This document shows, one piece after another, positions 2,796-4,160 of a DNA stretch of 4,160 nt. This DNA is from a virus (Duplodnaviria > Heunggongvirae > Uroviricota > Caudoviricetes), in the IMG/VR virus record IMGVR_UViG_2778261122_000002, positions 1-4,160 of that record; one strand, written 5' to 3'. Made by a program: the position numbers and the translations under genes. How positions within the stretch are numbered: position 1 is the first letter of the stretch; the number at the start of each line of letters is the position of its first letter. The notes beneath the pieces are model-generated. The model was not told where the DNA came from. It was given only the letters and a program-made list of their open reading frames with translations, and ran no database searches.

Positions 2796-3005
<210 letters not shown>

Positions 3006-3104: not shown

Positions 3105-3146
3105 TCTAAGGAAATACTTACATATGGTTCGTGCAAACAAACGCAA
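3105..3146 (-). promoter_or_regulatory. pRE-type promoter with CII binding site (TTGC-N6-TTGC)
   Basis: The minus strand reads TTGCGTTTGTTTGC (+ 3133-3146), the CII recognition repeat flanking the -35, overlapping the start of cII, with an AAGTAT-like -10 at about + 3110-3118. The arrangement is as in lambda pRE and is oriented toward cI. Confidence 0.55.
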
Positions 3147-3417
3147 CGAGGCTCTACGAATCGAGAGTGCGTTGCTTAACAAAATCGCAATGCTTGGAAC
3201 TGAGAAGACAGCGGAAGCTGTGGGAGTTGATAAGTCGCAGATCAGCAGGTGGAAGAGGGACTGGATTCCAAAGTTCTCAATGCTGCTTGCTGTTCTTGAA
3301 TGGGGCGTCGTTGACGACGATATGGCTCGATTGGCACGACAAGTTGCTTCAATTCTCACCAATAAAAAACGCCCGGCGGCAACCGAGCGTTCTGAACAAA
3401 TCCAGATAGAATTCTGA
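3124..3417 (+). CDS. cII: CII transcriptional activator, 97 aa
   Basis: MVRANKRNEALRIESALLNKIAMLGTEKTAEAVGVDKSQISRWKRDWIPKFSMLLAVLEWGVVDDDMARLARQVASILTNKKRPAATERSEQIQIEF matches lambda CII. The ORF-track start at 3064 is an upstream extension; the ATG at 3124 gives the native 97-aa length and has a purine-rich SD-like stretch (TAAGGAAA, 3108-3115) upstream. Confidence 0.95.
   Translation: MVRANKRNEALRIESALLNKIAMLGTEKTAEAVGVDKSQISRWKRDWIPKFSMLLAVLEWGVVDDDMARLARQVASILTNKKRPAATERSEQIQIEF
3364..3388 (-). terminator. oop-type intrinsic terminator, antisense within the 3' end of cII
   Basis: On the minus strand: GCUCGG, loop UUGCCG, CCGGGC, then G and UUUUUU (+ 3364-3388). This corresponds to the terminator of the lambda oop antisense RNA. 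Whether an oop RNA is actually made here is uncertain because the promoter region is altered (see findings). Confidence 0.5.
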
Positions 3418-3449
3418 GGTCATTACTGGATCAATCCACAGGAGTAATT

Positions 3450-3611
3450 ATGACAAAACGTCGTAAGAAATACCAGGAAAAAGAAGAGATTCGACACCCT
3501 GATTCACCTGAGGGATTAGTGGTAGCCGCAGCAAATAACAGGGCGTTCGCAGAGCGCCTTGTTGGTGTTTACAGACTAGCCAAAGCAGGAGTGAAACATG
3601 GGCGTCGTTAA
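3450..3611 (+). CDS. Small basic hypothetical protein (53 aa) at the cII/O junction
   Basis: ATG at 3450 with SD GGAGTAA at 3441-3447; translation MTKRRKKYQEKEEIRHPDSPEGLVVAAANNRAFAERLVGVYRLAKAGVKHGRR; stop TAA at 3609-3611, 14 bp past the O-like ATG. The start codon and RBS are those of lambda O, but the coding sequence diverges after the second codon, so it may be a genuine small gene or an ORF created at the recombination joint. Confidence 0.4.
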   Translation: MTKRRKKYQEKEEIRHPDSPEGLVVAAANNRAFAERLVGVYRLAKAGVKHGRR

Positions 3612-4160
3612 GTTAGCTGATTACAGGCCTCAACTGGAGGTCGTGGAGCATCGCGTGGCAGATACCGAAGATGGTTTCATGCGCGTTGCTAACGAGATTA
3701 CCGACAGTCTGCTGATGGCTGATTTAACCGTCCGGCAGTTGAAGGTGATGCTCGCTATCATGCGCAAGACATACGGATTCAATAAGCCGATGGATCGACT
3801 CACAAACACGCAGATAGCAGCCATGACAGGTATTCATCACACTCATGTTTGCGCTGCCAAGCGCCAGCTTATTGAGCGTAAATTCCTCATTGCTGATGGC
3901 GTGAAAATCGGAGTGAACAAGGTGGTTTCTCAGTGGATTATCCAGGACAGCTTAACATTAGCTAAAACAGCTAATAAAACATTAGCCAAGTCGGCTAATG
4001 GGTATAAGCCAAGTCAGCTAAACACAAAAGACAATATACAAAAGACAATAAATACAAATACCCCCTTACCCCCTAACGGGGGCGGCGATGGGCAGGTTAA
4101 ACCTGAACGTCGCAAGGCAGAACGAATCGACTACGAATCCTTCCTGAACGCCTACAACAC
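3598..4160 (+). CDS. Replication initiator, lambda O-like (5' partial; continues beyond window end)
   Basis: ATG at 3598 with SD AGGAG at 3586-3590; the frame stays open to the window end (187 codons). MGVVKLADYRPQLEVVEHRVADTEDGFMRVANEITDSLLMADLTVRQLKVMLAIMRKTYGFNKPMDRLTNTQIAAMTGI... aligns with the lambda O N-terminal domain (lambda: ...DLTKRQFKVLLAILRKTYGWNKPMDRITDSQLSEITKL), clearly homologous but divergent. Iterons and an AT-rich ori lie inside the coding sequence, as in lambda O. Confidence 0.88.
   Translation, partial: MGVVKLADYRPQLEVVEHRVADTEDGFMRVANEITDSLLMADLTVRQLKVMLAIMRKTYGFNKPMDRLTNTQIAAMTGIHHTHVCAAKRQLIERKFLIADGVKIGVNKVVSQWIIQDSLTLAKTANKTLAKSANGYKPSQLNTKDNIQKTINTNTPLPPNGGGDGQVKPERRKAERIDYESFLNAYN
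3957..4022. repeat. ori iterons: three 19-bp palindromic repeats on a 23-24 bp period inside the O-like gene
   Basis: ATTAGCTAAAACAGCTAAT (3957-3975), ATTAGCCAAGTCGGCTAAT (3981-3999) and ATAAGCCAAGTCAGCTAAA (4004-4022). Each has dyad symmetry (TTAGCY...RGCTAA); a possible degenerate fourth copy lies around 3945-3956. Confidence 0.7.
4023..4061. other. AT-rich DNA-unwinding-element-like segment of the putative ori
   Basis: ACACAAAAGACAATATACAAAAGACAATAAATACAAATAC, containing a tandem CAAAAGACAATA repeat (4025-4036 and 4039-4050), immediately followed by a GC-rich block CCCCCTTACCCCCTAACGGGGGCGGCG (4062-4088). This iteron, AT-rich, GC-rich order mirrors lambda ori. Confidence 0.5.

Follow-up and report, generated by a model that had tools for sequence, protein, structure and literature searches.

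A small gene of the HK97 gp53 family at the head of an HK97/Sf6-type replication cassette

The small open reading frame at positions 3450-3611 of the DNA analysed here (a stretch of 4,160 nucleotides from a virus of the Caudoviricetes, referred to below as the window) is the first gene of an HK97/Sf6-type cassette, in which it is followed by an O-like initiator with an internal origin and then by a DnaB-family helicase; the helicase part of the cassette is known from full-length relatives, and the window itself stops inside the initiator. Its conservation marks the ORF as a true coding gene that belongs to the HK97 gp53 family (PHROG 1331), and homologous recombination within a 33-bp boundary block appears to have linked the cassette to an immunity region of lambda type. 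We hold the identity and anatomy of the gene and its cassette with high confidence; for the explanation as a whole, i.e. an HK97/Sf6-type cassette whose gp53 acts early, as an accessory to replication modules that encode a helicase, we estimate a probability of roughly 0.6. The anatomy in itself adds little: HK97 gp53 is already annotated (GenBank record AF069529), and published work describes the boundary block as well as the cII-oop-orf-O-P layout.

Coding status of the small gene and its overlap with the initiator

The ORF lies on the plus strand, opens with an ATG, ends with a TAA at 3609-3611 and encodes a 53-aa product, MTKRRKKYQEKEEIRHPDSPEGLVVAAANNRAFAERLVGVYRLAKAGVKHGRR, of about 6 kDa with 14 Lys and Arg against 6 Asp and Glu residues and a pI of 10.7. 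The window contains 43 ORFs of at least 30 aa, and ORF size alone is uninformative there; we count this ORF as above chance because it is conserved, not because of its size. In tblastn comparisons the product is 100% identical in amino acid sequence to HK97 gp53 (NP_037738) and likewise to the product of Sf6 gene 42, and the only PHROG it matches is PHROG 1331 (E 1.4e-37, residues 1-53 of 53). The family was found by tblastn in 97 phage records, with epsilon34 gp49 (98%) and ES18 gp58 (94%) as near relatives of the window's protein, and the sequence is 100% identical among E. coli, Shigella and Salmonella phages. HK97 gp53 occupies the same slot between cII/oop and an O-like initiator, with the same 14-nt overlap; HK97 and Sf6 differ from the window in that the cassette stands there behind a cII of HK97 or P22-c1 type, and here behind one of lambda type.

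The comparison extends well beyond these close relatives. Among 17 diverged prophage loci across Enterobacterales, sampled from Edwardsiella to Serratia, Rahnella and Brenneria, the ORF is open in every case at identities down to 55%, and in all 17 it starts with ATG, is 52-55 aa long and has only indels that are multiples of three. The proportion of differing sites (median over locus pairs) is 0.66 for synonymous and 0.18 for non-synonymous sites, dN/dS of gp53 copies against the window copy is 0.05-0.20, and column entropy at codon positions 1, 2 and 3 is 0.55, 0.38 and 1.17, the third being about 2 to 3 times the others; a nonsense mutation was seen in 1 of 76 close copies. By these measures gp53 evolves as a protein, under purifying selection over its full length.

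The start of the initiator and the stop of the small ORF overlap by 14 nt on the plus strand, ATGGGCGTCGTTAA (3598-3611), and the initiator's own Shine-Dalgarno, AGGAG at 3587-3591 (plus strand), falls within codons 46-48 (A-G-V) of the small ORF. The overlap is kept at 17/17 loci, at 14 nt in most and 17 nt in L016 and L017, and each of these loci has a GGAG or GGGG at conserved spacing ahead of the initiator. Translational linkage of gp53 to the initiator is plausible because this stop/start overlap is conserved in all 17 loci. Structure-dependent coupling finds no support: the initiator has its own Shine-Dalgarno in every locus, and the RNAalifold consensus (-1.5 kcal/mol) places no pairs over the initiator Shine-Dalgarno and ATG, where no conserved RNA structure was detected; the single-sequence fold z-score at the initiator start is -1.4.

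A preliminary description of this DNA had reported a basic 53-aa ORF from 3450 that ends 14 nt inside an O-like gene with its own ATG (3598) and Shine-Dalgarno, and the coordinates and the pI given above bear this out. It had proposed that the ORF could be a genuine part of the donor module and that homologues should then be looked for upstream of other initiators; identity with HK97 gp53, PHROG 1331, the 97 phage records and the 17 intact loci, all with the ORF overlapping the initiator start, agree with that proposal. Its suggestion of coupling from the overlap holds as far as a plausible linkage is concerned, but not for coupling that depends on RNA structure.

Two further ways of relating the small ORF to the initiator were rejected. 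It is no N-terminal part of O: it lies in a different frame (3598-3450 = 148 nt, +1) and ends with TAA, and lambda O shares only ATGACAAA with it. A programmed frameshift from gp53 into the +1 frame of the initiator was judged by inspection, and the sequences at the overlap (CGT CGT TAA G, CGC TAG A, CAG CTA G) offer no conserved shifty site.

The boundary block and the joint with the lambda-type region

Upstream of the small ORF lies a lambda-type cII gene (97 aa; 3124-3417, plus strand; PF05269, E 1.7e-48) that is near-identical to lambda cII in alignment; it is the upstream neighbour of the donor module and lies outside it. The oop antisense RNA (3362-3439, minus strand) is lambda-like in sequence, its 5' end, placed by reference to lambda, would lie about 11 nt upstream of the ATG, within the boundary block described below, and a terminator-like hairpin followed by a run of T is found at 3393-3366 (minus strand). 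In the P22 record, terminator and promoter of oop are marked at equivalent places. An Rfam scan of the window gave no oop family and only a sub-threshold match to STnc320 at 1956-1997 (E 0.68).

An alignment of five sequences (window, Sf6, P22, lambda and HK97) delimits a 33-bp lambdoid 'boundary sequence', ACTGGATCAATCCACAGGAGTAATTATGACAAA, at 3425-3457, which the window shares with HK97 and Sf6 without a difference; P22 departs from it at 1 position and lambda at 3, and the sequence on both flanks is module-specific. Likeness of the window to lambda extends over cII, the oop terminator and ATGACAAA up to 3457; what follows is unrelated to lambda O. At positions 3433, 3437 and 3446 it carries the HK97/Sf6 variants and not those of lambda, and therefore the joint does not lie exactly at the start codon. 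The crossover of the window phage would have fallen between 3422 and 3457, with 3422-3432 as the simplest placement. The preliminary description had placed a module swap exactly at the O start codon, with a lambda match up to the ATG at 3450: the swap relative to lambda stands and the likeness runs on to 3457, but the exact joint does not, and the three variant positions interrupt the match.

The boundary block is an exchange site between immunity and replication modules, already described as a mosaic 'boundary sequence'. The 33-bp homology within oop/pO and the cII-oop-orf-O-P layout have been published (Hayes et al. 2012, PMC3349717), the block is 'sequence 5' of Clark et al. 2001 in the wording by which Hayes et al. 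2012 (PMC3349717) cite that paper, and the Sf6 record marks it as the feature 'bsq5', of which the window holds another instance with no difference. Lambda O is joined to many cII types through the same block. None of 80 close lambda-P loci has gp53 or orf48 (the slot gene of P22, below), and O starts there at the boundary ATG.

The RBS and start codon of gp53 are therefore the ones from which lambda translates its gene O; the Shine-Dalgarno concerned, AGGAG at 3440-3444 (plus strand), stands 5 nt before the ATG. On the opposite strand the block holds a putative extended -10 of pO, the oop promoter, TGTCATAAT (3447-3455, minus strand), assigned from the sequence itself, on the model of lambda pO and of the promoter annotated in P22. 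Its -10 hexamer CATAAT, with TG upstream, is the reverse complement of ATTATG and thus includes the start codon of the small ORF. The -35 would overlap codons 7-9 of the ORF with a poor sequence, TGGTAT, which fits the failure of a consensus promoter scan to call pO. A lambda/P22 laboratory hybrid has a pO with the lambda -10 and a foreign -35, the architecture proposed here for the window (Hayes et al. 2012, PMC3349717). One 33-bp block would thus do four jobs, as a putative -10 on one strand, an RBS and a start codon on the other, and a recombination site.

The replication module and the slot in front of the initiator

The O-like replication initiator (3598-4160, plus strand; PF04492, E 2.6e-33) is truncated by the end of the window and is 273 aa long in full-length relatives. 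Its N-terminal tag, MGVVKLADYR (3598-3627), is common to unrelated initiators and conserved as a peptide, and its 41% identity with lambda O is limited to the N-terminal domain (134 aa). Inside the gene lies a putative origin (3937-4051), in which four 18-nt iterons (3937-4021) precede an A-rich direct repeat (4024-4051); lambda ori, with its four annotated 18-bp iterons, and the rep_origin features of Sf6 and P22 have a matching layout. The lambda O-P module has the RBS, the ATG and the putative pO -10 in common with the window, the N-terminal, origin-binding domains of the two initiators are homologous, and the iterons lie inside the initiator gene in both. It differs in having no small ORF, O beginning at the boundary ATG; in the window-type module the C-terminal domain of O gives way to another one and the P loader to a helicase of the DnaB family.

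All 17 genomic loci have a DnaB-family helicase downstream of the initiator, with four subtypes that share 28-80% identity, and so do 77 of 80 viral contigs; these counts are not independent because modules are inherited as blocks. In one locus (L006) a 76-aa ORF stands between initiator and helicase. Full-length relatives of the window's module (L003) have exactly the lengths and domains given for Eru2A (273 aa, Phage_rep_O motif) and Eru2B (458 aa, DnaB domains) by Llarena et al. 2021 (PMC8044961), and a 97.4% match to the window is seen in the Stx2 phages 1717 and 2851. We infer that the window's module is equivalent to Eru2 of Stx phages, from a comparison of lengths, domains and hosts and not of the sequences; a term search of the Eru2 paper (Llarena et al. 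2021, PMC8044961) returned no mention of a small upstream ORF.

The surroundings of gp53 are constant on one side only. The downstream gene is a replication initiator in all 17 loci, and the upstream neighbour is any of several cII types, a YdaT-like, a KilAC/ANT or a beta-clamp-like protein, with no cII upstream at four loci (L005, L008, L015 and L018). At L004 gp53 is 91% identical to that of the window, with an initiator of only about 24% identity that has no Phage_rep_O domain and a helicase of 31% identity. gp53 is an independent mosaic unit, reassorted separately from the helicase and from the part of the initiator that binds DNA. No co-variation of gp53 subtype with initiator or helicase subtype was seen, which argues against a tightly co-adapted contact with the variable parts of these proteins; a host target fits equally well.

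The slot itself is used by other genes. P22 orf48 (also in HK022 and, as hkaW, in HK620; DUF2740 in some records; PHROG 1913) encodes 48 aa with a pI of 10.1 and occupies the same slot as gp53. Members of the orf48 family use the boundary RBS and ATG in the same way, with ACAAA as the next bases in most members and CCAAA in P22, the stop overlaps the initiator start (gene 18) by 8 nt in P22 and by 4 nt in L098, and orf48 accompanies initiator and helicase types that are also seen with gp53. However, gp53 and orf48 have no detectable similarity and fall into separate PHROGs (1331 only versus 1913 only), and the N-terminal tag of the initiator is MSNLATV... with orf48 versus MGVVKLADYR with gp53. 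The two are positional analogues and not members of one family. The slot gene is also part of the P22 phagemid of Owen et al. 2021 (PMC8585504), laid out as pR-cro-c1-orf48-O-P.

Other ORFs in the slot are of 90 aa (an ST131 prophage), 134 aa (HK639) and 265 aa (Klebsiella phage Mulock), the last two ahead of P-type loader modules, and the three basic slot ORFs analysed (gp53, orf48 and the ST131 90-aa ORF) have pI values of 10.0-10.7. The slot between cII/oop and the initiator may be a general site for accessory genes. A rule that a small slot ORF marks a helicase-encoding module held for gp53 and orf48; extended to all slot ORFs it is broken by HK639 and Mulock, which combine an ORF with a P-type loader. 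HK225, PHB10 and PdC23 have no slot ORF.

Candidate roles of gp53

The AF2 model of gp53 is of moderate confidence (mean pLDDT 70), with a helix at residues 21-49 whose core reaches pLDDT 78-88; the charged N-terminal 20 residues are predicted to be disordered, and residues 21-49 to be helical. The protein would accordingly consist of a charged tail, a Pro-rich hinge and a single 29-residue helix, on which L23, A27, N30, A34, L37, Y41, A44 and V48 would form a conserved stripe. No Pfam family matched at E up to 1, NCBIfam and PDB sequence (profile) searches matched nothing, Foldseek gave no match of the model in the PDB, and when 1.84 billion representatives were searched with a profile, relatives of about 50 aa were the only ones to appear, with the domain in no larger protein. 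None of these sequence and fold searches (Pfam, NCBIfam, PDB, Foldseek) showed a likeness to the loader families of lambda P, DnaC or SPP1 G39P. A CIII-like role, suggested by the size of gp53 and its closeness to cII, was rejected after the Pfam search gave it no sequence support. Literature searches found no functional study of HK97 gp53, P22 orf48, DUF2740 or Stx-phage replication regions; the 'orf48' (gnarl1) of an accessory-gene screen (bioRxiv 10.1101/2023.04.06.535777) is a library number and not P22 orf48.

Many Stx2-converting phages, P22-like Salmonella phages and Shigella phage Sf6 have a member of the gp53 family in their replication cassette. With its fixed position at the initiator start, gp53 is a candidate, inexpensive to test, for a factor by which DnaB-like helicases of P22/HK97 type would be loaded at the origin in modules that lack a loader of lambda-P type. 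We propose that gp53 would be transcribed from pR as an early gene, and that ribosomes ending gp53 probably feed translation of the initiator, on top of de novo initiation at the initiator's own Shine-Dalgarno. It would most likely act by protein-protein contact, as an accessory to modules that bring their own helicase, and its partner could be the N-terminal tag of the initiator, the initiator's C-terminal domain, the DnaB-type helicase or a host replication protein. Phage 77 ORF104 (about 52 aa), which binds the host loader DnaI, and the loader SPP1 G39P are small phage proteins that act on helicase loading; they offer an analogy to gp53 in size and in a module with its own helicase or loader, and not in sequence or fold. 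A replication-accessory role for gp53 is thus a tentative proposal, at somewhat under even odds. A more specific version, which we regard as improbable, is that gp53, orf48 and the ST131 90-aa ORF are unrelated small basic proteins needed once a module's own DnaB-family helicase replaces lambda P; gp53 would then be a minimal helicase-loading or initiator-helicase assembly factor, made in fixed ratio via the overlap and recognising a constant part of the module (the MGVVKLADYR tag or the C-terminal domain).

Alternatively, gp53 may be an early accessory protein aimed at the host, carried along in a variable slot and without a direct part in phage replisome function. It could block a conserved host protein or turn it to the phage's use, act against a defence system, or shift the choice between lysis and lysogeny in the manner of the small lambda CIII. 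As is typical of accessory-gene hotspots, at least five unrelated ORFs occupy the slot in one phage or another, and the three analysed are all basic. In addition, gp53 reassorts, is more conserved than its neighbours and, as noted, does not vary among phages of E. coli, Shigella and Salmonella, which is compatible with a conserved host target. However, free accessory genes usually occur in more than one context, whereas in the 17 loci and about 160 viral contigs gp53 was seen only directly upstream of an initiator that it overlaps, whatever the upstream gene. It also has no promoter or terminator of its own, matches none of the PADLOC defence-system families at E up to 1 and has no similarity to CIII or any other family. 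We consider a purely host-directed function rather unlikely.

The overlap raises another possibility, that the ORF is mainly a translated leader which sets the amount of initiator by termination-reinitiation at the 14-nt overlap, its peptide being of little importance. Retention of the stop/start overlap at every one of the 17 loci would fit this, as would the overlap of the unrelated P22 orf48 with gene 18 and the position of the ORF behind the strong RBS from which O itself is translated in lambda. But the strong purifying selection acts along the entire gp53, beyond the overlap. In every locus the initiator has a good Shine-Dalgarno at the right spacing, and its start is not covered by any conserved RNA structure. 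A leader function of this kind seems to us very improbable.

The remaining explanation, a chance frame or, as the preliminary description had also considered, a by-product of the recombination joint with no functional protein, could draw on the number of ORFs in the window and the one close copy with a nonsense mutation, but we give it next to no weight, as the ORF is intact across genera with dN/dS of about 0.1 and in-frame indels, and stands behind several upstream genes, hence different joints, being carried unchanged by HK97 and Sf6, whose cII is not of lambda type, and by the four loci with no cII at all.

The 53-codon ORF as a member of the gp53 family

The 53-codon ORF at 3450-3611 on the plus strand is firmly identified as a known gene of the HK97 gp53 family (hereafter gp53), the first gene in a replication cassette of the HK97/Sf6 type, and this cassette is just as firmly seen to be joined to a lambda immunity region via a published boundary sequence. 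By its lengths, domains and hosts the cassette resembles "Eru2", a replication unit of Stx phages (Llarena et al. 2021, PMC8044961). The DNA of the window belongs to the immunity and early-right region of a lambdoid phage: the minus strand carries the 5' part of N, a P63C-domain ORF (810-1760), lambda-type cI (1991-2704) and the oop terminator hairpin (3393..3366), and to the right of cI lie cro (2805-3005), lambda-type cII (3124-3417; PF05269, E 1.7e-48), gp53 and an O-like initiator gene that runs from 3598 to beyond 4160, where the window end cuts it (PF04492, E 2.6e-33).

The ORF coordinates reported in a preliminary description of this DNA proved exact, as did the overlap: the ATG at 3450 lies 5 nt past AGGAG, and the stop codon (3609-3611) falls 14 nt inside the initiator gene, whose ATG at 3598 is preceded by its own AGGAG (3587-3591). 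The product (6.1 kDa, 14 K+R vs 6 D+E, pI 10.7) has a full-length match to PHROG 1331 ("unknown function"), E 1.4e-37. HK97 gp53 and Sf6 gene 42 have exactly its sequence (100% identity), and the Sf6 record itself labels its copy "Phage HK97 53 protein homolog"; near relatives are epsilon34 gp49, g341c gp44 and ES18 gp58. With tblastn the gene is found in 97 phage records, Stx2 phages and P22-like Salmonella phages among them, and the copies in Cronobacter, Erwinia and Enterobacter phages are 75-79% identical. All named members of the 68 clusters in a large protein database are "hypothetical" except one 58-aa fragment, called "terminase small subunit". A profile search of 1.84 billion representatives returned 24 matches, all short (29-84 aa), none of them part of a larger protein.

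A scan taking one genome per species yielded 17 loci, from Edwardsiella, Trabulsiella, Yokenella, Enterobacter, Citrobacter, Chimaeribacter, Serratia, Rahnella and Brenneria, and two of them in records with apparently misassigned titles. These two, titled "Bacillota bacterium" MAG and "Chryseobacterium sp." (L003 and L006), have the sequence of enterobacterial lambdoid phages, with gp53 identities of 100% and 83%, and their source assemblies were apparently contaminated or misbinned. In each of the 17 loci the frame is open over 52-55 aa from an ATG, and every indel is a multiple of three. Between pairs of loci the median proportion of differing sites is 0.66 for synonymous and 0.18 for non-synonymous positions; dN/dS against the window copy is 0.05-0.20, and column entropy at codon positions 1, 2 and 3 is 0.55, 0.38 and 1.17. 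Among 76 near-identical viral copies the polymorphic sites are 8 synonymous and 7 non-synonymous, including one nonsense singleton. gp53 is a protein under purifying selection. The preliminary description, sound in what it observed and partly right in how it interpreted it, had left open whether the ORF was carried in with the donor module or created by the recombination joint; given this selection and the intact ORF at all 17 loci, it was carried and not created.

The joint and the oop promoter

Alignment against lambda and HK97 bears out the earlier account of lambda likeness through cII, the oop terminator and ATGACAAA, followed by a stretch with no similarity to lambda O. At this place the window, HK97, Sf6, P22 and lambda have in common a block, ACTGGATCAATCCACAGGAGTAATTATGACAAA (3425-3457), on both sides of which the sequence varies by module, and the Sf6 record labels precisely this segment "bsq5; boundary sequence". 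Hayes et al. 2012 (PMC3349717) described a 33-bp homology inside oop and its promoter pO in 23 lambdoid phages, named homologues of P22 orf48 and HK97 gp53, and reported a lambda/P22 hybrid whose pO has the lambda -10 and a foreign -35; the anatomy of the gp53 locus was already known.

Just left of the block the window reads GGTCATT, as lambda does, where HK97 has GGGAATT, and inside it the window has the HK97/Sf6 variants at 3433, 3437 and 3446, so that the crossover is most simply placed at 3422-3432. The same variants also segregate in phages with lambda O, and an exchange anywhere up to 3457 is therefore possible. The swap had been placed exactly at the start codon; that position marks the end of lambda homology and does not define the site of exchange, since the block carries HK97/Sf6 variants.

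Read on the minus strand, the block gives TGTCATAAT, for which the P22 annotation offers a parallel, and by this reading pO would have a lambda-type extended -10 that takes in the gp53 start codon. The promoter (3447-3476, minus strand) would be a hybrid, in which this -10 is retained and the -35 falls within gp53 codons 7-9; the latter is poor (TGGTAT, 2/6 matches). Levels of oop RNA, and hence control of cII, may differ from those in lambda.

Neighbours of gp53 and other occupants of its slot

In 17 of 17 loci gp53 ends 14 nt (17 nt in two) inside a replication initiator gene, with GGAG or GGGG at Shine-Dalgarno distance before the initiator start. No conserved RNA structure was found over the initiator Shine-Dalgarno or ATG (consensus fold -1.5 kcal/mol, single-sequence z-score -1.4), so obligatory structure-mediated coupling is unsupported; coupling via termination-reinitiation is plausible. 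A frameshift fusion of gp53 with the initiator was rejected for want of a conserved slippery site.

Several kinds of initiator are represented: Phage_rep_O proteins of differing subtypes, and a family with no Pfam match, found in five loci (L004, L006, L009, L011 and L019). All that these initiators have in common is a C-terminal domain of weak similarity (E 2e-5 to 0.003) and their first ten residues, MGVVKLADYR (3598-3627 in the window), a tag found on initiators with unrelated DNA-binding domains whenever gp53 comes before them. Where the tag varies, it does so at the third positions of the initiator's codons, and its peptide sequence is therefore constrained. Lambda O (MTNTAKILNF) and the ST131-type initiator (MSNTAKIYDF) have another such tag in common. 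The N-terminus of lambda O is a ClpX recognition signal, and by analogy these tags may be degrons. Origin-like architecture lies within the window's initiator gene at 3937-4051, where four 18-nt iterons (consensus ATTAGCYAAR.CRGCTAA, each internally palindromic, spaced 20-24 nt) precede two copies of an A-rich tandem repeat, ACAAAAGACAATAT.

After the initiator comes a DnaB-family helicase of one of four subtypes (28-80% identity), separated from it in L006 by a 76-aa ORF; upstream of gp53 lie cII of various types or a YdaT-like, KilAC/ANT or beta-clamp-like protein. Since gp53 of locus L004 is 91% identical to the window's, vs ~24% for the adjoining initiator and 31% for the helicase, gp53 and the initiator tag are a mosaic unit of their own, which stays with the initiator start and not with cII.

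Among 80 viral contigs whose initiator is of the window's type, 78 have gp53. One exception (L098) has an unrelated ORF of the P22 orf48 type at the same ATG (2332-2478; 1201-1347 in the P22 locus), and the other (L096) has neither gene and a different upstream region. orf48 occurs in 127 phage records, P22, HK022 and HK620 (hkaW) among them. PHROG 1913 and several RefSeq phage records call homologues, hkaW included, "tail protein"; as these genes sit in the early replication operon, the label is almost certainly an annotation error that has spread.

Loci with gp53, orf48 or lambda P were sampled at 80 each. HK97-type or L004-type initiator plus DnaB modules follow gp53; orf48 precedes either of these module types or else an O-like initiator with a 626-aa protein. 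Neither ORF occurs in the 80 close lambda-P loci; in these O itself starts at the boundary ATG, and the cII before it is one of several types. Both families are thus tied to helicase-encoding modules in every sample taken. The 626-aa protein (4108-5988 in L200, and in about 40 other orf48 loci) takes the place of a DnaB-like helicase or P loader beside an initiator whose aligned N-terminal region is 49% identical to that of lambda O, and on inspection of its sequence looks like a putative primase-helicase fusion.

The best whole-window relative, an E. coli ST131 prophage, has a third, unrelated ORF in the slot between cII/oop and the initiator gene (5954-6226 of locus L343; 90 aa, basic, pI 10.0), which ends 2 nt short of the gene for a 346-aa initiator, with a DnaB-type helicase next. 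Among more distant P-loader phages, HK225, PHB10 and PdC23 have no slot ORF; two others do (HK639, 134 aa; Klebsiella phage Mulock, 265 aa). Helicase-encoding modules are thus not the only ones with an occupied slot.

Possible roles of gp53 and the region to its left

AlphaFold2 on the family alignment (mean pLDDT 70) predicts a disordered, charged segment at residues 1-20 and helices at 21-29 and 31-49, with a core pLDDT of 78-88. Invariant or near-invariant residues include L23, A27, N30, F33, A34, R36, G39, R42 and A44; an i+3/i+4 stripe made up of L23, A27, N30, A34 and A44 plus L37, Y41 and V48, which are less conserved, suggests a helix-packing face. The C-terminal half is moderately amphipathic (hydrophobic moment 0.4-0.5). 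Foldseek, PDB sequences, NCBIfam and PADLOC gave no relatives.

We tentatively favor a replication-accessory role, in which gp53 would be an early accessory protein of helicase-encoding modules and act by its conserved helix, since it is never found off an initiator start, travels with the initiator tag and always has a phage DnaB-type helicase along. The main rival reading, that gp53 is a host-directed accessory gene in a variable slot, is favored by the diverse ORFs found there and by the independence of gp53 from its neighbours' subtypes. A pure leader-ORF role is unlikely, because the peptide is under selection. Literature searches found no experimental test of the proposed functions.

In the place of lambda's rexA and rexB, between pL/N and cI, the window encodes the P63C-domain protein (316 aa; ATG 1760, alternative TTG 1802; PF10546, E 6.8e-23), which had no match in PADLOC or NCBIfam. 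Related E. coli prophages carry there rexAB, a BstA-C-terminal-domain protein or an SDH-family Clp-fold protease, and this variety suggests a prophage-expressed defence or exclusion slot. Just 3' of the cI stop, 1956-1997 gives a sub-threshold Rfam match to the Salmonella sRNA STnc320 (22 bits vs a gathering score of 50, E 0.68), coinciding with a GC-rich hairpin, aaaaaaggccgcacttctgtgcgacctttc, that is probably just the terminator of the cI/rex slot.
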